Source: an uncultured archaeon (GTDB lineage Archaea > Iainarchaeota > Iainarchaeia > Iainarchaeales > CSSED10-239). From it: a stretch of DNA of 21,260 nt. Below, piece by piece: positions 10,035 through 20,462 of this stretch. Numbering within the stretch: position 1 is the stretch's first letter; the number at the start of each line of letters is the position of its first letter. The translations under genes and the position numbers were made by a program. The stretch is taken from the NCBI GenBank assembly GCA_964463155.1, contig CAYXAY010000007.1:6237-27496 (forward strand), in the 5' to 3' direction. Under the pieces are notes generated by a model that was not told the origin of the DNA, searched no databases, and saw nothing but the letters and a program-made list of their open reading frames with translations.

Positions 10035-10601
10035 ATGAATTGGACAAGATTCAATCAGGAAGTAAGAAACGCAATAGATACAGGAAACATAATTATAGGA
10101 GCAAATCAGGCAAAAAAGGAATGTCTAATAGGAGAACCTAAACTATTAATTGTAAGTTCAACAGTTGACCCTCAAAACAGGGATTTGTTTAGACATTATG
10201 CAAAATTGCTTGGAATAAACCTAATAGAATATCCAGAAGGCAGTAATGAACTTGGCTCTGTTTGTGGGAAACCGTTTGGAATATCAATTATTGCAATTAT
10301 TAATGAGGGAAAATCTTCCATCTTAGAAGTAATTACTGAAAAAGATTTTGAGAAAAAAGAAGATAAAAAATTAATTGCAAAAAAAGCTAAAAAAGAAGAA
10401 AAGAAAACAGCTAAGACTACAAAGAAAACAAAGAAAGATGCTGATGAAGACTTTTCGGAAGACGAATTAACTTCAAAGAAGAAAAGAGACGCAAAAAAAG
10501 GTCCGAAAGTAAAAGAAGAGAAAAAAGAAGAAGAGGAAAATAATATTCCAATAACTGAAGATAAGATGTTTAAGGACATTATCAAGATAAAGAAAAAATA
10601 A
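10035..10601 (+). CDS. rpl30e: Ribosomal protein L30e with a ~90-aa Lys/Glu-rich C-terminal extension
   Basis: The first ~100 aa fit archaeal L30e (AIDTGNIIIGANQAKK...LGSVCGKPFGISIIAIINEGKSSILEV), and the position after rpoA2 is canonical. The remainder is a K/E/D low-complexity tail. Confidence 0.8.
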   Translation: MNWTRFNQEVRNAIDTGNIIIGANQAKKECLIGEPKLLIVSSTVDPQNRDLFRHYAKLLGINLIEYPEGSNELGSVCGKPFGISIIAIINEGKSSILEVITEKDFEKKEDKKLIAKKAKKEEKKTAKTTKKTKKDADEDFSEDELTSKKKRDAKKGPKVKEEKKEEEENNIPITEDKMFKDIIKIKKK

Positions 10602-11066: not shown

Positions 11067-11666
11067 ATGAAATTATTTGACAAATGGGAAACAAAAGGAA
11101 TAAACTTCAAAGATGTTGGTCTTTCTAAATACCTGAATTTAGAAGACAAGGTCATACCACACACATTTGGTGCAACAAACAAAGAACCTTCCAGAAAAAC
11201 GAAAATCAATATTGTTGAAAGACTGGTAAACAAGATGATGAGATCAGGACAAGGAAAGAAAAAGCTTTCAGGTAAATATGTAAGACACAGAATGGGTTGT
11301 GGAAAGAAAGAACAGATGTTAAAAGTTGTTGAAGAGGCATTTAATCACATACATAAAGTAACAAAGGAAAACCCAGTTCAAGTTCTTGTCACAGCTGTTG
11401 AATACTCAGCACCTAGAGAAGACATTACTAAGCTTCAGAAAGGAGATATCACTTACACGCAATCAGTTGACTTAGCTCCAATCAAGAGACTTGACGAAGC
11501 ACTAAAGAATATTGCTCTTGCGGCCTTTAAAAACACATACAAGAACAAAAAAGAACCAGCAGCAGCATTAGCAGAAGAAATAATAGATGCTTCAAAAAAC
11601 GACCAAAAAAGCTTTTCTGTAAAAAGAAAAGACGAAATAGAAAGAATTGCACAAGGTTCAAGATAA
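11067..11666 (+). CDS. rps7: Ribosomal protein S7 (uS7)
   Basis: Archaeal-length S7 (199 aa) with the C-terminal KRKDEIERIAQGSR-type ending, immediately after S12. Confidence 0.9.
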   Translation: MKLFDKWETKGINFKDVGLSKYLNLEDKVIPHTFGATNKEPSRKTKINIVERLVNKMMRSGQGKKKLSGKYVRHRMGCGKKEQMLKVVEEAFNHIHKVTKENPVQVLVTAVEYSAPREDITKLQKGDITYTQSVDLAPIKRLDEALKNIALAAFKNTYKNKKEPAAALAEEIIDASKNDQKSFSVKRKDEIERIAQGSR

Positions 11667-11692: not shown

Positions 11693-12598
11693 TCAATTTT
11701 TTTTATAAAAATATTCTTTAATCTGTATTTTACAATTATCTAAATGGCCTAATAAAATCTTCTTTAAAATAAATATTATAAAATTGATGTATACCCTGGC
11801 ATTTTTTTTTAATTTGCACAAATCACATAGCGGTAAATATTTCCTATATTCTAGCCCTCTCGATAATCTCTTATTGTGTGATAAATATAATTCCCAAGTA
11901 AAATTACTTGGGTGTGGGTAATTGCATATACAAAGTGGAACATTTTCTAAAAAAACTTTTTTTATATTTAATTTTTTTATTTTAGCCAAGTAATGTTTTG
12001 TTATAGGGAGTGATACAATTTCTTTTTTACAATAATCTTTTTTAAAATTATAGAAACGAGGGTATGAAATTCTAATTTTATTTAAATATGGAAAGGTAGT
12101 ATTTAGCCAAATAATCATTTCACTTAACGTTTTATAATTGTGTTTTGTGATCACCGTGTTTGTACTAACTTTTATGTGCTTCTTAAACTGTTGGAATATA
12201 GATAACGCATTAAGTGCCACATAAAAACTATTTTTATTTTGTGAAATTTTTGAAAAGGTGGTGCGATTATGTGAATGAAAAGATATTTTAAATTCAGTTA
12301 TGCCTGCTGCAATTAATTGAGACACATACTCTTTAGTAAAGTTTGTTCCATTTGTCTCAATCAATATATTTTTATAGTAATGTTTAGCATATTTAACTAT
12401 TTTTAATAAATCTTCGTGTAAGGCGGGTTCCCCACCAGTAATAGTGATACGCGAAAAATTATTATTTAATGTCCTGTCTATATCTTTATATATTTCTTTT
12501 AAGGTGGGTTCGGGATTATAATGTTTGTTTACCGAACAAAAAATACAATTATTCAAACATTTTCCAGTAATGTGTATTTCTACTTCTTTCATCAACAA
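11693..12598 (-). CDS. Radical SAM enzyme (MoaA/PqqE-like core), possible C-terminal auxiliary Cys motifs
   Basis: CxxxCxxC at the N-terminus (GKCLNNCIFC), a GGEP motif (ITITGGEPAL) and ETNGT. C-terminal Cys pairs are PLCIC and PLCDLC. The gene is very AT-rich, convergent on rps7 and divergent from the 12733+ operon. Confidence 0.8.
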   Translation of the reverse strand: MLMKEVEIHITGKCLNNCIFCSVNKHYNPEPTLKEIYKDIDRTLNNNFSRITITGGEPALHEDLLKIVKYAKHYYKNILIETNGTNFTKEYVSQLIAAGITEFKISFHSHNRTTFSKISQNKNSFYVALNALSIFQQFKKHIKVSTNTVITKHNYKTLSEMIIWLNTTFPYLNKIRISYPRFYNFKKDYCKKEIVSLPITKHYLAKIKKLNIKKVFLENVPLCICNYPHPSNFTWELYLSHNKRLSRGLEYRKYLPLCDLCKLKKNARVYINFIIFILKKILLGHLDNCKIQIKEYFYKKN

Positions 12599-12721
12599 TC
12601 ATCAATAATAATATTTGTTAATATTATTGTATTAAATAATATTAAAAAACCGATAGGTTATTAATATTATATTAAATAGATAGCGTGAATTTTTTATTGT
12701 AAAAAATAATCAACTGATGTC

Positions 12722-12729
12722 TTTATAAA
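12722..12729 (+). promoter_or_regulatory. TATA-box-like element (TTTATAAA) for the + strand island operon
   Basis: It lies in the divergent intergenic region. A transcription start about 25 nt downstream would favour the internal ATG at 12769 as the start of the small ORF. AT-rich context makes this weak. Confidence 0.3.
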
Positions 12730-12732
12730 TTA

Positions 12733-12909
12733 ATGGGAGCCAAAGCATTATTATATGGCGGTTTTATTATGGGTGATAATATCAATTTAAATCAAAATAA
12801 ACTTCAAAATCTAGAAAAAGAAAAGCAATTTTCAATACACAGATTACCAATTACTGCTAGAGAAAAGAAAGGCATTTTTGAAGCGTGGGCAGAATCTAGT
12901 GATTTATAG
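12733..12909 (+). CDS. Candidate precursor peptide / small ORF (58 aa; alternative in-frame start 12769 gives 46 aa)
   Basis: Hand-translated and below the ORF-track size cutoff: MGAKALLYGGFIMGDNINLNQNKLQNLEKEKQFSIHRLPITAREKKGIFEAWAESSDL. It ends 7 nt before the PqqD-like gene, in the precursor position of pqqA/mftA-type clusters. It has no Cys and no family match that I can assert. Confidence 0.3.
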   Translation: MGAKALLYGGFIMGDNINLNQNKLQNLEKEKQFSIHRLPITAREKKGIFEAWAESSDL

Positions 12910-12916
12910 ATTGCTT

Positions 12917-13165
12917 ATGAAAAAGATAATAGTTAAAAATAAAGAATTTTGGTATCGACAAGAAGAAGATTTATTTATTTTATTTGAAAAATCTAATTAT
13001 TATTATTTAGTTACTGGGCTAATTATATTTATTTTAGAAGAATTATCTCAAAATAGGGATTTAAATACAATTACTGCAGAAATTAAAAAAAAATATGATA
13101 TTGATGTGTCTATTGAATTTTTATTGCAAAAATTAAGCGAAATTGAAGGTTTAACAATATGTTAA
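12917..13165 (+). CDS. PqqD-like RiPP recognition element (RRE) protein, 82 aa (ATG start preferred over track TTG 12878)
   Basis: Size and pattern resemble PqqD/MftB: a short beta-strand region (WYRQEEDLFILFEKSNYYYLV) followed by helices (IIFILEELSQNRDLNTITAEIKKKYDIDVSIEFLLQKLSEIEGL). Its stop overlaps the start of the downstream rSAM/SPASM gene (ATGTTAA). Confidence 0.5.
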   Translation: MKKIIVKNKEFWYRQEEDLFILFEKSNYYYLVTGLIIFILEELSQNRDLNTITAEIKKKYDIDVSIEFLLQKLSEIEGLTIC

Positions 13166-14148
13166 AATATTTTAAAACTCCGCTGTTTCCGAGTATTGAT
13201 TTAAGTTCAAATTGTAATTTACAGTGTATTCATTGTAGAAACGACAAAACAAAAAACACTAAAATAGATTACAATAAGGTTATTGATTTAGTTGATGAAT
13301 GTGAACGATTAGAGGTTTTTCATCTATCTTTTGCAGGAGGAGAGCCGCTTTTATATCCTCAGATTTATGATTTGCTAGATTATGTCCAAAAATTAAATAT
13401 CCCCAAAATTACAATAGTTACAAATTGCACCATTTTAAATAGAGAGAAGTTAAAATCATTAGATAAATCAAAAATAAGATTTGCAGTAAGTTTAGATGGA
13501 CCAAGAGAAATACATAATAAAATAAGGGGGGCAAATATCTTTGATAATGTAATTAGTAACATCCAATTCTTATTATCTGAAGGATACTATGTTTTTTTAA
13601 GTTGTACTTTAATGAAACAAAATTATAAATATTTTGATGACATAATACAAATTGCTAAGGATATTAAAGTTAATCAAATAAATTTTTCAAAAGTTTTTCC
13701 AGTACATCCAGAGATATTATATTTTATGTTATCAAGGTTGGATTTAGAAGAATTATATAAGAAATACCAGAAATATTCCGATGAAAAAGATATTATAATT
13801 TTTTTAGATAAAGGGTATATGGGATTTCCTGAAGAATATAAAACAGATGTTTCTTTTGCTATGGGTTGTAGGGGCGGTATATCTCAAATAAACGTATTAT
13901 CAGATGGTTCTGTTGTGGGCTGTAAATTATTGTCTAATGTTATTGCAGGGAATATTTATAAAGAGAACTTGGAAAATATTTGGAAGAATGATAAAAATTG
14001 GACATTGTTTCGTAATATAGATGAAAATATAGAAAATAAAAAATGTAATTCTTGTAAATATTTTAGTGCTTGTCGCGGTGGTTGTAGAGCCTATACTTAT
14101 TATATTACTGACAGTTTCTATAAAAAAGATCCATTATGTCCGTTGTGA
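13159..14148 (+). CDS. Radical SAM / SPASM-domain peptide-modifying maturase
   Basis: N-terminal CNLQCIHC (CxxxCxxC) and AGGEPLL. The C-terminal SPASM signature is GCRGG...DGSVVGC followed by CNSCKYFSACRGGC (C-x2-C-x5-C-x3-C) and a terminal DPLCP. Confidence 0.85.
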   Translation: MLKYFKTPLFPSIDLSSNCNLQCIHCRNDKTKNTKIDYNKVIDLVDECERLEVFHLSFAGGEPLLYPQIYDLLDYVQKLNIPKITIVTNCTILNREKLKSLDKSKIRFAVSLDGPREIHNKIRGANIFDNVISNIQFLLSEGYYVFLSCTLMKQNYKYFDDIIQIAKDIKVNQINFSKVFPVHPEILYFMLSRLDLEELYKKYQKYSDEKDIIIFLDKGYMGFPEEYKTDVSFAMGCRGGISQINVLSDGSVVGCKLLSNVIAGNIYKENLENIWKNDKNWTLFRNIDENIENKKCNSCKYFSACRGGCRAYTYYITDSFYKKDPLCPL

Positions 14149-14152
14149 GAGC

Positions 14153-15805
14153 ATGTCTAAATATACTATAAGTGAAATAATAATTTTTTTCTTGAAATTA
14201 CAGAAAATAAAGTGTGTTTTTGGAGTGCCTGGTTCTAACATGGATTTTTTGAATTATATTTCAAAAAATAACAAAATAGAATTTATATCAAATAAAGAGG
14301 AAAAAAATTCAGTATATATGGCAATGGGATATTCTAAAGCATCTAATAATGTAGGTTGTTGTTTTGCTAGTTTAGGACCAGGAGTTTTTAATTTAATTCC
14401 AGGAATCATTTCAGCATATTATGAATCTACGCCTATATTAGTTATTGGGGGACAAAACTCTGCAATAAATTTTGGGCAAAATGTATTTCAAGAGGCCTCC
14501 GGAAAATCTAGAACTGTAAGTCAGATTGATCAGTTAAAAAAAATCACACTATATTCTGTAATAATTGATCCTAACAAAATTTATTTGCAATTATCTTTAA
14601 TCCATAAATATTTGCATTGTTCTAGACCAGGGCCGGTATATTTAGAATTTCCGCAAGATTTAATGAACTTAATTATAGATTTTAATGAAAATAAACTCCG
14701 AAATATTTTAATAAAACAAAATAAAATTACATCTAAACAAAATCACAAAATAAACCTGAAAACAATGAAATTATTGTGTAAAGAAATTTATTGTGCTAAA
14801 CACCCAGTATTTATAATTGGTGGAGGCGCAAAAAATGTTAAAAATTACATTAAGATTTCGGAACATTTTTCAATACCAATTGTAACAACATTTAAAGGAA
14901 AAGACAAAATTCCAAATAATTCAAAAAACTATTTGGGATGTATTGGTTTGATTGGGGCGCAGAGTACAAATAGGTACATATTTAATTCTGATTTGATAAT
15001 TGCAATAGGAACTAGTTTAGGACAATTTTCTACAGATAATTGGAAAATCATTTCTCCTCACAGTAAAATATATCGCATAGATATTTATACAACGGATTTA
15101 ACTAAAAATTATTTGTCCAATTTAATTCAATGTGATTTATTTTATTTTTCAGAGGTGTTTTCTAAAGAAATGCACCTATTTAAAAAGAACAAATTAGAAA
15201 TAAATATACGGAAAAACGAAATATTAAAAGTAAAATCCGAAATAGATAAAGAAATTAATCCTAAAAAAACAAATTCTAATAAAATAAAATTTATTAAACA
15301 ATTAAGGAAAAAACTGCCTAAAAATGCGATCGTTGTTAACGAAGATATTTTTTTAATTGGGAAATATTTCCCTTTTTTTGAAGAGAATACAAATCTCAAT
15401 TTCACTAATCTAGCGCCCATAGGGTGTGCTTTGTCTGGTGCCATAGGTGCAAAAATTGCAAAACCTAACAAAACAGTGGTCGTTGTGTTAGGCGATGGTG
15501 GATTTAATATGTCTATATCTGAATTAAATACTATTTTTAATTATAATATAGATTTGTGCATTTTTATACTTAATAATTGTTGTTATGGAGTAGTATATAA
15601 ATATCAAAAATATAAATTTCGGGAATCATTTTATACAGAATATAAGAACCCCGACTATAAGAAATTAGGAACATTGTACGGTTTCAAAACCCAAATTCTA
15701 AATAATGGAAAACTAAGAAATATTACTCAATTTAATAAAAGTGATAGGTTATTATTTAATATAATTATTGACAAGGATGAAAAGATGAATATAAAAATAT
15801 ATTAA
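14153..15805 (+). CDS. Thiamine-diphosphate-dependent enzyme, acetolactate-synthase-like three-domain architecture (550 aa from ATG 14153; track start 14066 overlaps the upstream gene)
   Basis: The N-terminal PYR domain reads FGVPGSNMDFLNY...KEEKNSVYMAMGYSK...GPGVFNLIPGIISAYYESTPILVIGGQ. The central domain reads PVFIIGGGA...IPIVTTFKGKD. The C-terminal ThDP motif is LGDGGFNMSISELNT...ILNN. It starts 4 nt after the SPASM stop. Confidence 0.8.
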   Translation: MSKYTISEIIIFFLKLQKIKCVFGVPGSNMDFLNYISKNNKIEFISNKEEKNSVYMAMGYSKASNNVGCCFASLGPGVFNLIPGIISAYYESTPILVIGGQNSAINFGQNVFQEASGKSRTVSQIDQLKKITLYSVIIDPNKIYLQLSLIHKYLHCSRPGPVYLEFPQDLMNLIIDFNENKLRNILIKQNKITSKQNHKINLKTMKLLCKEIYCAKHPVFIIGGGAKNVKNYIKISEHFSIPIVTTFKGKDKIPNNSKNYLGCIGLIGAQSTNRYIFNSDLIIAIGTSLGQFSTDNWKIISPHSKIYRIDIYTTDLTKNYLSNLIQCDLFYFSEVFSKEMHLFKKNKLEINIRKNEILKVKSEIDKEINPKKTNSNKIKFIKQLRKKLPKNAIVVNEDIFLIGKYFPFFEENTNLNFTNLAPIGCALSGAIGAKIAKPNKTVVVVLGDGGFNMSISELNTIFNYNIDLCIFILNNCCYGVVYKYQKYKFRESFYTEYKNPDYKKLGTLYGFKTQILNNGKLRNITQFNKSDRLLFNIIIDKDEKMNIKIY

Positions 15806-15816
15806 AAAGATTACTT

Positions 15817-16125
15817 ATGAAATATAAAATAGACTATATAGTTGAAGGCAACTTTTCAGGCCCTATAAAAATAATAGATTCTTCTTATGATTATAAATTA
15901 GTTTGTGAGGGAGATGTCTTATTAATTAAAAAACCAAATCCAGACATCGTTTTAAGTTTTGGAAAAATTACTGGTATAATATCTGAAGTAGGCGGGAAAT
16001 TATCTCATATCGCGATTGTTTCAAGAGAGAATAATATCCCTTGTGTCAGATTAGAAAATGCAACAAATATTTTAAAAAACGGAGTTGTAATTTCAGTTCG
16101 TGATGGTTTTATATATGTTAAATAA
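15817..16125 (+). CDS. Stand-alone PEP-utilizing-enzyme mobile (phosphohistidine swivel) domain protein, 102 aa
   Basis: GDVLLIKKPNPDIV...GIISEVGGKLSHIAIVSRENNIPCV...NGVVISVRDGFIYV matches the GG-x-(T/S)-SH-x-AI-x-(A/S)-R-E-x-x-IP swivel-domain signature with the catalytic His. Confidence 0.8.
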   Translation: MKYKIDYIVEGNFSGPIKIIDSSYDYKLVCEGDVLLIKKPNPDIVLSFGKITGIISEVGGKLSHIAIVSRENNIPCVRLENATNILKNGVVISVRDGFIYVK

Positions 16126-17122
16126 TGAATTATTTATAAAAATAGGCAAAGATCTGAGTAGAATTCAAAAAGGTGGAGGAATTGATACTCAATGGCCATT
16201 TGTATTGCCAGATTTTGAAATCTCATTTGGAGAAGATATAATAAACCATTTAAACTTTGTTTTATGTAAATTTTTAAACACACACACAATAGATGATGCG
16301 GCAAATTTATTGAAATGCCCTTCTAAAGTCTCGCAATATATTTTATTAATTCATAGCGCTAAACACCTAAATAAAAAAGATAGAAAAAAGTTAATTTTAA
16401 CATTAACCAGTATTTTAAAAAAATTAAGAAAAAATTATCTTTGTGAAAACGGGACTAATCAACTTAACAATTTTGATTATAAAAATTATTTAAATCACAC
16501 ACAATTTACAAAAGAAGATACCAAAAAAATTAATCAATTGTCTAGCACCCTTTATGCTTATTTAGAAAAATTATATCCCACGATGATGCGATTAGGATTT
16601 GAATATCATGGACCATATATTTATAACAATAAAAAATATATTTTTAAGGAATATTTTGATTTAAACAACAATTATATACCTAACTGTAAAATAGATTATA
16701 AAAATATTAAAATAGTTTATGAAATAGATAATGACGTGTATGTAGACTTTTTTGGACACATATATGGCGATGGCAAAACAAAAGTTGTAGGTTTATATAT
16801 AGATGGTAATAAAATAAGCGATATTACAGAGGTGTTTAATAAAATAAAAGACATTTATGAATATCAAAAGTCTTTATTTTTAAACTATAATTATAAAGAT
16901 TATGCAAAAAATTTAGTATTTGGCATATTTTTTTCTTTAAAACCCATCTGCGATAAAATCGGGGTAGATTGGAAACCTCGCAAAAATGTTATTGAAAAAA
17001 CTAAAAATTTTAAATTAATTTTTCCTTTAGAAAATGTATTAAATAAAATACATCAAACACCTACAGAAGATTTAGAAAGAAAAATCACAAAAAGCTTTTC
17101 TGAAATATTTGATGATAAATAA
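16115..17122 (+). CDS. Hypothetical protein (~335 aa), N/K/Y/I-rich, no recognisable motif
   Basis: Long open frame whose ATG at 16115 overlaps the upstream stop by 11 nt (the track gives a GTG at 16100). It lacks the PEP-utilizer C-terminal TIM-barrel signature (no G-[ST]-N-D-L). Confidence 0.6.
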   Translation: MLNNELFIKIGKDLSRIQKGGGIDTQWPFVLPDFEISFGEDIINHLNFVLCKFLNTHTIDDAANLLKCPSKVSQYILLIHSAKHLNKKDRKKLILTLTSILKKLRKNYLCENGTNQLNNFDYKNYLNHTQFTKEDTKKINQLSSTLYAYLEKLYPTMMRLGFEYHGPYIYNNKKYIFKEYFDLNNNYIPNCKIDYKNIKIVYEIDNDVYVDFFGHIYGDGKTKVVGLYIDGNKISDITEVFNKIKDIYEYQKSLFLNYNYKDYAKNLVFGIFFSLKPICDKIGVDWKPRKNVIEKTKNFKLIFPLENVLNKIHQTPTEDLERKITKSFSEIFDDK

Positions 17123-17176
17123 CAAAAATATGTATATTATATTCTATTTTTAAAGTTTCTTTTTCTATAATTATAT

Positions 17177-18121
17177 ATGTCTTATATTAGATTCTTTAAA
17201 GACCTTACAAAAGACTCAGTAAGCATGGCTGGCGGAAAAGGCGCATCTCTTGGAGAGATGAACAATTATGGTTTTCCAATACCCTATGGTTTTGTTGTTG
17301 TTTCTTTAGCCTTTGAAGATTTTATTAAAGAAAACAAAATTGGTTCGAAAATAAAAGAAATATTAAAAACAGTAGACACAAACAAATCAGACACCTCAGA
17401 AAAAGCATCAAAAGACATTGAAAATCTAATTTTAAATGGTGCACTAAATAAAGATTTAGAAAAAGAAATACTAGATTCTTTTAAGCAATTAAATACAGAA
17501 TATGTTGCAGTAAGGTCAAGCGCCACAGCAGAAGACTCCTCAAGTGATGCTTGGGCAGGTCAACTTGATTCATTTCTTAACACTAAAGAACAGAATTTAT
17601 TAGAAAATGTAAAAAAATGCTTTGCTTCTCTTTTTACTCAAAGAGCAATTGTTTACAGAATTGAAAAAGGACTACTTGATAAGAAAATATCGGTTGCTGT
17701 TGTTGTTCAAAAAATGGTTAATTCTGAGAAATCCGGAATTGCTTTTTCAGTTAATCCAGTAACTAACGATTACTCACAAATGATAATTGAAGCAGGATAT
17801 GGTCTTGGAGAAGCCATTGTTTCTGGGCAAATTACTCCCGACAGTTATATTGTCTCAAAAACACACGAAATCTTGGACAAACACAAGGGCACTCAAAGTA
17901 AAGCATTATATCGCTCACCAGACGATCAAGGAAATATTTGGAAAGAAATCACAAATGAGAAATCAGAACAAGTTTTATCTGATAATCAAATAATTGAATT
18001 ATCAAAAATAATTGATAATATTGAGAAACACTATACCTTCCCAGTAGATGTAGAGTGGGCTATTGAAAATGGAAATTTTTACATTCTCCAAAGTAGGCAA
18101 ATAACGACATTAAAAAAGTAA
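17177..18121 (+). CDS. PPDK_N-type ATP-grasp (nucleotide-binding) domain protein of the PEP synthase / pyruvate phosphate dikinase / rifampin phosphotransferase superfamily, 314 aa
   Basis: MAGGKGASLGEMNNYGFPIPYGFVV...YVAVRSSATAEDSSSDAWAGQLDSFLN...VAVVVQKMVNSEKSGIAFSVNP...EAGYGLGEAIVSGQITPD...VEWAIENGNFYILQSRQIT. It has no swivel or TIM-barrel domain. It has its own TATA-like TTTTTAAAG about 25 nt upstream, and its base composition resembles the core genes. Confidence 0.85.
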   Translation: MSYIRFFKDLTKDSVSMAGGKGASLGEMNNYGFPIPYGFVVVSLAFEDFIKENKIGSKIKEILKTVDTNKSDTSEKASKDIENLILNGALNKDLEKEILDSFKQLNTEYVAVRSSATAEDSSSDAWAGQLDSFLNTKEQNLLENVKKCFASLFTQRAIVYRIEKGLLDKKISVAVVVQKMVNSEKSGIAFSVNPVTNDYSQMIIEAGYGLGEAIVSGQITPDSYIVSKTHEILDKHKGTQSKALYRSPDDQGNIWKEITNEKSEQVLSDNQIIELSKIIDNIEKHYTFPVDVEWAIENGNFYILQSRQITTLKK

Positions 18122-18263: not shown

Positions 18264-20462
18264 ATGGGACGAAAAGAACTAGTTGCAGAACTTGCACAAA
18301 AATTAATGAGTAATACTAAAAATATTAGAAATATTGCAATCATTGCACATATTGATCATGGAAAATCAACATTAACTGATAACCTTGTAGCAACTGCAGG
18401 TCTAATCTCTAAAGAACTAGCAGGACAACAAGTATTCATGGATTCTTATATCCTTGAACAAGAAAGAGGAATTACAATCAATGCCTCAAACGTTTCTGTT
18501 CCTTGTGAGATTAATGGAGAGAAGTTTTTGGTAAATATTATTGACACACCAGGACACGTTGACTTTGGTGGAGATGTTATTAGAGCAATGAGAGCTGTTG
18601 ATGGAGCAGTCTTAGTTGTTGATGCTGTTGAAGGAGTTATGCCTCAGACAGAAACCGTTTTAAGACAAGCATTAAAGGAAAGAGTTAAACCAGTTCTTTT
18701 CATTAACAAAGTTGACAGATTAATAACTGAAATGAACGTTGCTCCAGAAGATATGCAAAAAAGATTTATTAAAGTTGTAATGGATATTAATAACTTGATT
18801 GCAAAAAACGCAGCAGAAGAATTTGCACAAAAATGGCAAGTAAATATTAAAGATGGTTCTGTATGTTTCGGTTCAGGATATCACAACTGGGCATTATCGG
18901 TTCCAGCAATGACTAAATACAATATAAAGTTTAGTGATATTGTTGATTACTGTAAAAACGAAAAACAAAAAGAACTTGCACAAAGAATACCAGTAAGTGA
19001 AGTTTTCTTAGAAATGGTTTCACAGCATTTACCAAATCCAATGGAATCACAAAAATACAGAATTCCAATTATCTGGGGTGGAGACTTAGAAACACCAGAA
19101 GGAAAAGCAATGACTGAATGTAATCATTCAGAAAACAACATTGCAATGATGGTCACTGACGTTGTTCTTGACAAACACGCAGGAGACATAGCTTCAGGGA
19201 GAATATATACAGGAACTATAAAGAAAGGGATGGACTTAAATGTTCTTGGCGCAGACAAAACTGCTAAAGTTCAGCAAGTTGGTATTTACTTAGGTCCCGA
19301 AAGAGTTATATTAGATGAAGTTGTAGCCGGTAACATTGTTTGTGTTATTGGTATGAAAGAAGTTTATGCAGGACAAACATTATCAAATAAAGAAATAAAA
19401 CCATTTGAAAGCTTTATGTCAGATGTTGAACCAGTAATGACTGTTTCAATTGAAGCAAAGAACAGCAAAGATCTTCCAAAACTAATCGAAGTTGTTCACA
19501 ACATCACAAAAGAAGACCCAAACATTAGAGCTGAACTAAACCAAGAAACAGGAGAGCACTTGATTTCGGGTATGGGTGAACTTCATTTAGAAATTACTCA
19601 ATATAAGATTGAAAAAGACAATAATATTCCAATAACTGTTAGTCCGCCAATTGTTCTATATTACGAAACAATACAAAAAGCATCACCAACAATTGAAGGA
19701 AAATCACCAAACAAACACAACAAGTTCAAGATTTCTGTTGAGCCTTTATCAGAAGAGATGCTTGCAAAAGTTAGAGCTATTAAGTTTGATGGAAGAATCA
19801 GAATAAACAAAGATGTAGAAATACAAAATAAATTTGTTGATGCTGGTTTTACAAGAGATGAATCAAAAAATATCTGGGCAGTTCATAACAATTGTATATT
19901 GATTAACAGAACAAAAGGTATTCAAAATCTGTTTGAAACAAGAGAACTTGTAATTGACGCATTCATGGATGCAACAAAGGAAGGACCAGTTGCAAAAGAA
20001 AAGGTTTCAGGAATAATTGTAAATCTTGAAGATGCAACTCTTCACGAAGATGCTATACACAGAGGTCCTGCTCAAGTTCTTCCCGCAATCACTAGAGCAA
20101 TATGGGCTTGTGTTCTTTCATCTGATTATACATTGTTCGAACCAAAGCAAAAACTTTCTGTTTCTGTTCCGCAAGACTTTATGGGTTCAGTTAACAGAGT
20201 TCTTGCAGGCAGAAGAACACAGATTGAAAGAATTGATATGGAAGGAGAATCCTGTATTGTTATTGGTAAGATTCCAGTTAAGTCATTAATTGGTTTAAGC
20301 CAAGAGATGAGAGGAGAAACCCAAGGAAGAGCAATTTGGACAGCAGAATACGCTGGTTATGAAAAATTACCAAAATCCATTCTTATGTCAACCATCACAG
20401 AAATAAGAACAAGAAAAGGAATGGAACCGGAGCCAAAGCCTGCAGAATTCTTCATGGACTAG
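18264..20462 (+). CDS. fusA: Translation elongation factor 2 (aEF-2)
   Basis: G-domain motifs AHIDHGKST, DTPGHVDF and NKVDR. The diphthamide-site region is HEDAIHRGPAQV. Length is 732 aa, with a GGAG Shine-Dalgarno upstream. Confidence 0.95.
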   Translation: MGRKELVAELAQKLMSNTKNIRNIAIIAHIDHGKSTLTDNLVATAGLISKELAGQQVFMDSYILEQERGITINASNVSVPCEINGEKFLVNIIDTPGHVDFGGDVIRAMRAVDGAVLVVDAVEGVMPQTETVLRQALKERVKPVLFINKVDRLITEMNVAPEDMQKRFIKVVMDINNLIAKNAAEEFAQKWQVNIKDGSVCFGSGYHNWALSVPAMTKYNIKFSDIVDYCKNEKQKELAQRIPVSEVFLEMVSQHLPNPMESQKYRIPIIWGGDLETPEGKAMTECNHSENNIAMMVTDVVLDKHAGDIASGRIYTGTIKKGMDLNVLGADKTAKVQQVGIYLGPERVILDEVVAGNIVCVIGMKEVYAGQTLSNKEIKPFESFMSDVEPVMTVSIEAKNSKDLPKLIEVVHNITKEDPNIRAELNQETGEHLISGMGELHLEITQYKIEKDNNIPITVSPPIVLYYETIQKASPTIEGKSPNKHNKFKISVEPLSEEMLAKVRAIKFDGRIRINKDVEIQNKFVDAGFTRDESKNIWAVHNNCILINRTKGIQNLFETRELVIDAFMDATKEGPVAKEKVSGIIVNLEDATLHEDAIHRGPAQVLPAITRAIWACVLSSDYTLFEPKQKLSVSVPQDFMGSVNRVLAGRRTQIERIDMEGESCIVIGKIPVKSLIGLSQEMRGETQGRAIWTAEYAGYEKLPKSILMSTITEIRTRKGMEPEPKPAEFFMD

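Follow-up and report, generated by a model that had tools for sequence, protein, structure and literature searches.

The closest described relatives of the genes reported here are systems for RiPPs (peptides made by the ribosome and altered after translation), in which a maturase with radical S-adenosylmethionine (SAM) and SPASM domains acts on a short precursor with the help of a RiPP recognition element (RRE). In the pyrroloquinoline quinone (PQQ) system, a small peptide (PqqA) is followed by a discrete chaperone of the PqqD family and a SPASM enzyme (PqqE), and the same order of peptide (MftA), RRE (MftB) and SPASM enzyme (MftC) is found for mycofactocin. Short-chain dehydrogenases/reductases (SDRs) accompany mycofactocin systems. 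In the streptide enzyme SuiB the RRE is fused to the maturase. We know of no experimentally characterised archaeal system for radical-SAM peptide maturation. We analysed a stretch of 21,260 nucleotides, hereafter the window, from an uncultured archaeon of the Iainarchaeota (GenBank assembly GCA_964463155.1, contig CAYXAY010000007.1, positions 6,237 to 27,496 of the forward strand). The window contains a small peptide gene, a gene for an 82-aa PqqD-like protein and a gene for a radical-SAM/SPASM enzyme in the order seen for PQQ and mycofactocin. The module shows features of the RRE-dependent radical-SAM/SPASM class of RiPPs, namely a conserved short precursor open reading frame (ORF), a PqqD-like RRE, and a CxxxCxxC motif together with a seven-Cys SPASM domain.

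A conserved peptide gene with its putative chaperone and maturase

We propose that the genes at positions 11693-18121 of the window (Table 1) probably act together, as a single biosynthetic cluster, to make a peptide that is ribosomal in origin and modified by enzymes. Among the observations that support this reading, the gene for an enzyme dependent on thiamine diphosphate (ThDP) occurs only where the peptide genes occur, and the closest solved maturases are the peptide cyclases SuiB and CteB. The full set of peptide, RRE, SPASM, ThDP, swivel, acceptor and second radical-SAM genes was found in the window and in four related loci (L001, L004, L005 and L013). It was also found in a divergent clade, designated clade 2 (L101 and L103), where the block of SPASM, RRE and peptide genes is inverted; a third clade 2 locus, L017, begins inside the cluster, upstream of the swivel gene. 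Since the association of these genes survives both rearrangement and divergence to about 35% identity, it argues for one pathway. A sequence-only reading of the window had centred on the peptide, RRE and maturase genes. The second radical-SAM enzyme and the downstream enzymes are conserved members of the same cluster, and that reading thus under-described the system. The cluster is very rare. Its family counts about a dozen independent loci, which all come from metagenomes, and the closest named carrier is a metagenome-assembled genome of Candidatus Iainarchaeum.

Table 1. Features of the cluster in the window and selected features of related loci (coordinates are those of the window unless a locus is named)
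Feature	Position	Strand	Length	Basis or remark
Second radical-SAM enzyme, HxsC/MoaA-like, no SPASM domain	11693-12598	-		Pfam Radical_SAM E 6e-20
Precursor peptide, MGDNINLNQNKLQNLEKEKQFSIHRLPITAREKKGIFEAWAESSDL	12769-12909	+	46 aa	Conserved ORF directly upstream of the RRE gene in 13 loci
Discrete PqqD-family RRE, putative peptide chaperone	12917-13165	+	82 aa	Profile chain and synteny
Radical-SAM/SPASM peptide maturase (putative), no fused RRE	13159-14148	+	329 aa	Pfam, Cys motifs
ThDP-dependent enzyme, acetolactate-synthase superfamily	14153-15805	+	550 aa	Pfam TPP_enzyme_N, _M and _C
Stand-alone phospho-histidine swivel domain (PEP-utilizers)	15817-16125	+	102 aa	Pfam E 1.4e-14
Putative dikinase acceptor/substrate subunit	16103-17122	+	339 aa	Uncharacterised family, predicted new fold
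Stand-alone PPDK_N ATP-grasp domain	17177-18121	+	314 aa	Pfam PPDK_N E 1.5e-95
Lone swivel and acceptor pairs	L011 2445-4876 (and L012); L099 1748-3017; L100 9583-10936
TTTTAAAA box upstream of clade 2 peptide genes	L017 3760-3790; L101 8970-9000; L103 8487-8517

The conservation of the peptide gene was surveyed in the DNA around relatives of the maturase and of a downstream gene, and every locus that reached far enough was counted. In 13 loci from the two divergent clades, an orthologous small ORF lies immediately upstream of the gene for the 82-aa protein. It adjoins every homologous maturase for which upstream DNA was available, even though the maturases of the two clades are only about 35% identical. 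The three ORFs picked out by the sequence-only reading are all present where it had placed them, save for the start of the smallest. Its sequence and its lack of cysteine stand, but the proposed start at 12733, giving 58 aa, probably does not. The most likely start is the ATG at 12769, giving 46 aa, because a GGAGG/GGCGG Shine-Dalgarno-like motif lies 7-9 nt before the equivalent ATG in most loci of clade 1 (the clade of the window) and because the closest relative of the peptide (L010/L013) has no in-frame ATG further upstream. The window peptide differs from this relative by 8 synonymous and 1 non-synonymous changes in 24 codons (pN/pS 0.03). Across peptide pairs, the ratio ranged from 0.03 to 0.67, with all 31 pairs below 0.7. 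Its recurrence beside the maturase in 13 loci, together with these ratios, indicates that the small ORF is not a chance reading frame: it is a real gene under purifying selection.

The peptide matched no family in Pfam or NCBIfam. The consensus for clade 1 reads ...[KE]-L-[FY]-x-I-[KR]-x-L-P-I-T-x-x-x-K-x-x-I-[FY]-E-[AS]-W-[AVI]-E-[SN]-x-D... and that for clade 2 (L017, L101 and L103) ...E-I-A-K-F-P-x-x-G-E-x-x-K-I-A-E-F-W-[VI]-E.... A Pro and the residues of I-x-E-x-W-x-E are invariant in 13/13 peptides; the Ile four residues before the Pro is kept in 12/13, with Val in L009. We infer a putative leader motif, I-x-x-[LF]-P, followed by I-x-E-x-W-x-E as the core. Cysteine is absent from all 13 peptides, and the earlier exclusion of thioether chemistry of the sactipeptide or ranthipeptide type is thereby borne out, as a thioether bond is impossible in a peptide without Cys. 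The stretch after the core varies from nothing at all (the L103 peptide ends ...FWIES) to about 20 acidic residues (L006/L007), and in the peptides with a short end it measures 0-4 residues. The C-termini accordingly read ...ESSDL, ...ENNDI, ...ES, ...ESD or ...EGPD, or run on for about 13-20 extra acidic residues.

The peptides of L006 (1884-2018) and L007 (1773-1919) are otherwise identical and differ by one extra GDDD unit in the acidic tail (…DDGDDDGDDDGGGSQ versus …DDGDDDGDDDGDDDGGGSQ), so the tail evolves by repeat expansion. The peptide genes of clade 2 lack a Shine-Dalgarno motif; instead, their ATG is preceded, at a distance of about 20-27 nt, by a TTTTAAAA box. This combination suggests that they have their own promoter and a leaderless transcript.

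The assignment of the 82-aa protein to the PqqD family was made by a two-step profile comparison. Its counterparts in clade 2 (L017, L101 and L103) matched the NCBIfam model of the WgkC chaperone at E values of 8e-11 to 8e-10. The L101 protein also cleared the Pfam PqqD gathering score (25.0 versus 23.4 bits), and those of L101 and L103 matched lasso-peptide PqqD models as well. When the RRE profiles of the two clades were aligned with hhalign, they matched with a probability of 90% and an E value of 1.7e-6. The proteins of both clades are encoded at the same gene position, with stop codons that overlap the maturase start in both. Because of the link to syntenic clade 2 proteins that are PqqD-positive, we accept the 82-aa protein, on sequence and synteny, as a probable PqqD-family RRE, in agreement with what had been read from its sequence. 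The 7-nt overlap ATGTTAA of RRE stop and maturase start, noted earlier, is present, and an overlap of 4-8 nt was found in 5/5 related loci where both called genes were compared. In the public record (P0127, 95 aa), as in the output of gene callers generally, the RRE gene begins at a TTG at 12878 (12878-13165) and so overlaps the end of the peptide gene. We place the start at the ATG at 12917 instead since all orthologues share the N-terminus MKKII….

In Pfam, the maturase exceeded the gathering scores of two models, Radical_SAM (E 4e-21) and SPASM (E 3e-9). The two cysteine motifs read from the sequence are confirmed as C19-x3-C23-x2-C26 and C296-x2-C299-x5-C305-x3-C309. Ten cysteines are invariant in 9 orthologues, namely the three of CxxxCxxC and seven of the SPASM domain, which include C237, C255 and C327. 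Because the radical-SAM motif starts as early as residue 19 and the enzyme has no N-terminal RRE of its own, it would need a discrete one. Among 5.8 billion proteins, there are seven close relatives at 51-88% identity, and the next match is at 29%. When the family profile was compared with solved structures, the best match was SuiB (5v1q, a Lys-Trp cyclase; E 3e-23), followed by CteB, anSME and PqqE. No curated NCBIfam threshold was reached among the models for PQQ, mycofactocin, streptide, WGK, Hxs and sactipeptide/ranthipeptide enzymes; the ACGX model, for instance, gave 117 bits against a cut-off of 400.

A scan of a genome collection, made with the generic motif CNLxCIHCR of the maturase alignment, returned no orthologues; the SPASM enzymes that it did retrieve were unrelated and at most 29% identical. 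A SPASM enzyme at 29% identity in a Woesearchaeota locus (L019, 6227-7425) directly follows a 34-aa ORF, MENYDKSIPVQVEFLDSDSDSEIFVINESICLYD, with no separate RRE. This locus is a different system from the cluster in the window, and its two genes may be another archaeal pair of peptide and maturase.

Comparison with described systems

By analogy, the module would follow the working logic of PQQ and mycofactocin biosynthesis and of the radical-SAM RiPPs of streptococci, yet it belongs to none of these systems because all curated thresholds and all defining peptide motifs fail. The likeness to PQQ extends beyond gene order to a peptide with few invariant residues that include Glu and an aromatic residue, to enzymes of small-molecule type, and to a product for which no exporter is needed. 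In contrast, PqqA carries E-x-x-x-Y where the peptides here carry E-x-W-x-E, and the PqqE model gave 83 bits against a cut-off of 381. Moreover, PqqB and PqqC are absent from the window cluster, which has the ThDP enzyme, the dikinase and the second radical-SAM enzyme instead. The Glu-Tyr bond made by PqqE offers a parallel for a possible E-x-W crosslink, as a three-residue cyclophane does for W-x-E.

Mycofactocin was compared more closely since C-terminal processing of its kind had been suggested for the window. In that alternative, the enzyme would carry out oxidative decarboxylation and crosslinking at the last residues of the peptide. The resemblance to mftA-B-C gene order speaks for it, as does the MftC model, which aligns with the maturase over its full length (residues 8-327). 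The score of this alignment, 111 bits (110.6), is however well under the cut-off of 265. No homologues of MftD, MftE or MftF were found, and the window peptide does not end in the ...GVY or Val-Tyr of mycofactocin. The C-terminus is instead the variable, least conserved part of the peptide and the invariant residues are internal (I-x-E-x-W-x-E), which makes chemistry at the last residues unlikely; we consider this alternative extremely improbable. An SDR gene does stand beside the cluster in L006, L007 and L013. It encodes an adh_short short-chain dehydrogenase, adjoins the second radical-SAM gene (L006 1048-1800, L007 937-1689 and L013 116-886), and is absent from the window.

Radical-SAM/SPASM enzymes that crosslink Trp to Lys or Arg are known (PMC5491770, PMC11851443). 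Related systems are the streptide (SuiB) and WGK (WgkB/WgkC) RiPPs of streptococci and other Trp crosslinkers such as WprB. The cluster resembles the streptide and WGK systems in that its maturase is closest to SuiB, its RRE has WgkC as the best curated match, and the core of its peptide contains an invariant Trp. The models for these systems were nevertheless far from their cut-offs (66 versus 500 bits for the KxxxW cyclase and 99 versus 650 for WgkB). There is no Lys or Arg at a fixed distance from the Trp, the Lys being found anywhere from -5 to -7. The RRE is a separate protein here, the hosts are archaeal, and the accessory enzymes of the window are absent from the streptide and WGK systems.

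Other classes share, or may share, single features with the cluster. As in triceptides, the invariant W-x-E, with the form W-[AVI]-E in clade 1, could be an aromatic-X-X unit suited to closure by a SPASM enzyme, but it is a single motif and not a repeat, and there was no triceptide maturase model among the 25 best NCBIfam matches of the maturase. The His-Xaa-Ser system pairs a SPASM enzyme (HxsB) with the non-SPASM radical-SAM enzyme HxsC and the peptide HxsD; here likewise, a SPASM enzyme is paired with a non-SPASM radical-SAM enzyme that aligns end to end with HxsC. The peptides of the window family, however, contain no HxS repeats, and the HxsC score of the second enzyme is 81 bits against a cut-off of 268. 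The models of the sactipeptide and ranthipeptide enzymes PapB and AlbA gave 82 versus 340 and 66 versus 850 bits, respectively, and the peptides have no Cys donors for such enzymes.

The E-x-W-x-E pattern also recalls the LysW/ArgW carriers. In LysW, aminoadipate is borne by the Glu of the tail. The C-terminus of LysW reads EDWGE (PMC10433800), and the E-x-W-x-E pattern is all that the peptides here share with it. Membership in this carrier family was rejected because the peptides lack the zinc-ribbon Cys and do not end in their motif Glu, and because LysX is absent. More generally, the peptide might serve as a carrier or scaffold, as LysW and the pearlin scaffolds do, with a small molecule built on a Glu of E-x-W-x-E; the dikinase would then activate the carboxylate, and extension of the cargo would fall to the ThDP enzyme. 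The acidic tail and the small-molecule type of the accessory enzymes speak for such a role. On the other hand, the peptide is without a Pfam match as well as without zinc-ribbon Cys, neither a LysX-type RimK ligase nor a LanB-like PEARL enzyme is encoded in the cluster, and the motif Glu is C-terminal in 0/13 peptides. The pairing of RRE and SPASM enzyme points instead to direct radical chemistry on the peptide. A carrier role is therefore quite improbable in our estimation, and direct modification of the peptide is the reading that we retain.

A full-text literature search found no description of an archaeal cluster of this composition, and none of a RiPP cluster that joins a ThDP enzyme with a dikinase of the phosphoenolpyruvate (PEP) synthase type, although such absence is not proof. 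This agrees with the earlier remark that no characterised archaeal system with this layout next to such downstream enzymes was known. The search likewise returned no radical-SAM peptide maturation system from small-genome DPANN lineages. To our knowledge, neither an acetolactate-synthase-like ThDP enzyme nor a phospho-histidine dikinase has been reported in a RiPP cluster. Thus the recognition logic of the cluster is familiar, while its core motif, its accessory enzymes, its new-fold dikinase subunit and its host lineage are unfamiliar.

Accessory enzymes and a predicted three-part dikinase

The second radical-SAM gene and the peptide gene are transcribed in divergent directions. No complete related locus lacks the former, which lies either upstream or downstream of the cluster. 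Its product matched the NCBIfam HxsC model over nearly its full length (E 7e-23). An alignment of these enzymes shows conserved C14/C18/C21, C223, C258 and C261, together with a fourth C-terminal Cys in a C-Q-G context.

The ThDP gene directly follows the maturase gene in all loci of the RiPP type and is absent from those with the dikinase pair only. The translation retains an intact GDG...NN ThDP motif. The enzyme scored 268 bits against the NCBIfam model of the large subunit of acetohydroxyacid synthase (AHAS), for which the cut-off is 538. Its best relatives in the PDB are BbmA (E 1e-49) and AHAS (E 1e-40); a literature search found no paper on BbmA/CsmA. In L008 (2028-3671), the ThDP gene is represented by two called ORFs of 101 and 354 aa with a gap between them, and this split may reflect a frameshift, a pseudogene or an assembly error.

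Three further genes most likely encode parts of a phospho-histidine dikinase. The catalytic motif of the swivel domain, GGKLSH64IAIVSRE, is intact, with His64 within GGKLSHIAIVSRE, and the domain matched chains of PEP synthase and rifampin phosphotransferase in the PDB. Its gene overlaps the acceptor gene at the 3' end in 4/4 loci where both were called. The PPDK_N protein matched the archaeal PEP synthase 8a8e (E 2e-65) and the rifampin phosphotransferase 5hv1 (E 8e-55). Its gene adjoins those of the swivel and acceptor proteins in the window, in L013-L016 and in L011/L012, and is not adjacent to them in L001, L004 and L005.

The acceptor protein belongs to no Pfam, NCBIfam or PADLOC family, and a sequence-profile search of the PDB returned nothing significant. 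A word-indexed search of 5.8 billion proteins retrieved 6 relatives, and an exhaustive profile search with the acceptor family retrieved 251 cluster representatives, of which 149 had E < 1e-10; there were no relatives on viral contigs or plasmids. Exact look-ups returned no record of the maturase, nor of P0121, a protein 100% identical to the acceptor. AlphaFold2 modelled the protein with a pLDDT of 85.7 and a pTM of 0.88. When this model was compared by Foldseek, the best match in the PDB had an E value of 0.14 with TM scores of at most 0.16, and among predicted viral proteins there was none at E <= 0.001. The acceptor is hence predicted to have a confidently modelled fold without a match among solved structures.

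The role of this protein is suggested by fusions. P0222 (796 aa) joins PPDK_N, PEP-utilizers and acceptor domains in the domain order of PEP synthase. In addition, P0271 is a fusion of PEP-utilizers and acceptor domains, and in P0186 the acceptor domain is followed by a HAD phosphatase. Judged by these fusions, the acceptor family seems to supply PEP-synthase-like dikinases with a third domain that has not been described before. Since P0222 carries all three parts in order, the three window genes most likely form one dikinase of the PEP synthase/rifampin phosphotransferase type. Such an enzyme would share with PEP synthase, rifampin phosphotransferase and PigC the combination of a PPDK_N ATP-grasp, a phospho-histidine swivel and a third, substrate-specific domain; unlike them, it would be split over three genes, as predicted from sequence and from fusion P0222. 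The third domain of PEP synthase is the PEP-utilizers_C TIM barrel. PEP synthase proper was considered and rejected because the acceptor, without a Pfam or structural match, is neither this barrel nor a rifampin-binding domain.

Proposed pathway and setting of the gene island

By analogy to PqqD/PqqE, MftB/MftC and SuiB, the RRE would bind the leader at its conserved stretch, I-x-x-[LF]-P, which lies 11-12 residues ahead of the Trp, and present the invariant I-x-E-x-W-x-E core to the SPASM enzyme. This enzyme would then abstract a hydrogen atom through a 5'-deoxyadenosyl radical and form a C-C or C-O bond. The bond would most likely join the invariant Trp to one of the flanking Glu (E-x-W or W-x-E), which is the most economical guess given an invariant Trp between two invariant Glu and no Cys. 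Synteny suggests the steps that might follow. The modified core may be processed by the second, HxsC-like radical-SAM enzyme with its C-terminal four-Cys motif, and a 2-oxo group may undergo acyl-anion, decarboxylation or carboligation chemistry at the ThDP enzyme. PPDK_N would use ATP to charge His64 of the swivel domain, from which the phosphate would be transferred to a substrate bound by the acceptor subunit with the predicted new fold.

We lean weakly towards a peptide-derived small molecule, or a very short modified peptide, as the product rather than an exported macrocyclic RiPP. This is based on the small number of invariant residues (about six), the variable tail, the small-molecule type of the enzymes and the absence of a conserved protease or transporter. 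It is conceivable, if somewhat unlikely, that the cluster represents a new route from a ribosomal peptide to a small molecule derived from Trp and Glu, either a cofactor or a toxin, by E-x-W-x-E crosslinking, ThDP-dependent C-C chemistry and phosphoryl transfer by a new-fold dikinase. If so, it would be the first such pathway to a peptide-derived metabolite in archaea of the DPANN type and would give the family of PEP-synthase-like dikinases, with its roughly 250 clusters, a first role. A cofactor-like product would join the short list of peptide-derived cofactors, which includes PQQ and mycofactocin. The cluster is in any case a compact and testable gene set with a very short, invariant, Cys-free core, in which any bond made cannot be a thioether. 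It also provides a first functional foothold on the acceptor family, with its confidently predicted fold and no solved relative.

Several observations weigh against the reading of 11693-18121 as one peptide-modifying cluster and against parts of the proposed pathway. Which type of bond is made, and between which residues, is guessed from conservation. No protease or exporter is conserved across the window, L001, L004, L005 and L013; a SLAC1-type transporter lies two genes downstream in L001 only. The RRE of the window, taken alone, scored 17.9 bits against Pfam PqqD, where the cut-off is 23.4 (E 0.004). It was also below threshold for WgkC (E 1e-4), and 3/8 of the clade 1 RREs matched PqqD at E < 1. 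When the clade 1 profile was compared directly with the PqqD domains of fused maturases, the match was weak (E 0.014, probability 3%), and a search of PDB sequences with the RRE profile gave no significant match. The AlphaFold2 model of the window RRE, from an alignment of two sequences, was poor (pLDDT 65), and the Foldseek matches obtained with it were without meaning; its strand order was beta-beta-beta-alpha-alpha-alpha, which is the topology of RRE domains.

The window copy of the second radical-SAM gene is, furthermore, frameshifted as sequenced. The shift falls in a run of nine A (11802-11810), with an affected region of 11736-11830 on the minus strand, and it costs this copy the conserved C-terminus (…KCQGxHKYYxLYF…), including the fourth conserved Cys. 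If the run is lengthened by one A, the consensus tail, KCQGIHQFYNIYF...PFR, is regained and the gene stops at 11736-11738. The shift may be a sequencing or assembly error, or the frameshift may be genuine and the gene a pseudogene.

The highest NCBIfam bit scores of the maturase are those of the tetrapyrrole enzymes AhbD (128 bits, cut-off 500) and NirJ1 (123 bits, cut-off 650). These scores and the weak showing of the window RRE when taken alone could be explained if the SPASM enzyme acted on a non-peptide substrate, such as a tetrapyrrole or cofactor, and if the small ORF and the 82-aa protein were unrelated to it. The AhbD and NirJ1 matches are, however, partial, being split into two stretches, and lie 4-5 fold under their cut-offs, and the best solved relative by profile is SuiB; the maturase falls into no non-peptide family. 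Peptide and RRE genes are also strictly syntenic with the maturase gene in two clades, the RRE and maturase genes overlap, the clade 2 RREs are clear PqqD-family proteins, and there are no tetrapyrrole genes nearby. A non-peptide substrate is consequently very improbable, and we continue to favour the peptide as the substrate of the maturase.

A final set of observations concerns the dikinase. Swivel and acceptor pairs occur without a peptide, RRE, radical-SAM or ThDP gene in L011/L012, L099 and L100, accompanied in L011/L012 by a divergent PPDK_N; the substrate of the dikinase therefore need not be a peptide. The neighbours of these lone pairs include restriction-modification, PIN, SLFN, ORF6N, UvrA-like and AAA_14/DUF4143 genes, of the defence-island type in L099 and L100. 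The dikinase could accordingly be an enzyme of self-protection that phosphorylates and inactivates the product, in the manner of rifampin phosphotransferase, or an unrelated module that travels with the cluster, with the remaining genes making the product. These pairs, with or without PPDK_N, occur alone as orphan immunity genes do. For PPDK_N and swivel, the matches to rifampin phosphotransferase and to PEP synthase are of similar quality, and the lack of an adjacent PPDK_N in L001, L004 and L005 also fits. Yet the swivel and acceptor genes stand inside the cluster, between the ThDP and second radical-SAM genes, a position more typical of a pathway enzyme. Their overlap is kept in both divergent clades, and the acceptor domain has no similarity to a rifampin-binding domain. 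Immunity or mere co-travel is, in our view, unlikely, and we retain the dikinase as a putative member of the pathway.

The window is AT-rich archaeal DNA. Its left part encodes rpoH, rpoB'', rpoB', rpoA', rpoA'', L30e, S12 and S7, and its right part encodes archaeal elongation factor 2 (aEF-2); eight non-translation genes lie between S7 (which ends at 11666) and EF-2 (which starts at 18264). The cluster at 11693-18121 interrupts, between rps7 and EF-2, the otherwise conserved gene string rpoH-rpoB-rpoA-L30e-S12-S7-EF2. The G+C content is 0.253 across 11693-17122 versus 0.336 and 0.326 in the flanks, and that at third codon positions differs little. In other genomes, the surroundings of the cluster are unrelated and variable (Fic, AAA_14/DUF4143, restriction-modification and SLFN genes). 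Insertion into a conserved gene string, lower G+C and variable neighbourhoods elsewhere together suggest that the island is mobile.

PADLOC defence models gave, for both radical-SAM genes, only matches to viperins that are generic to the radical-SAM core, and a defence role for the two genes on this basis was rejected. Rfam and tRNA scans returned no match inside the island. A scan for sigma-70 promoters was at background level; the sigma-70 model does not apply to archaea. The sole RNA family detected in the window is a tRNA-Leu (CAA) at 1335-1418. The L30e/L7Ae-family protein encoded at 10035-10601 consists of a domain at residues 6-97 followed by a C-terminal extension of about 90 residues that is rich in Lys and Glu.

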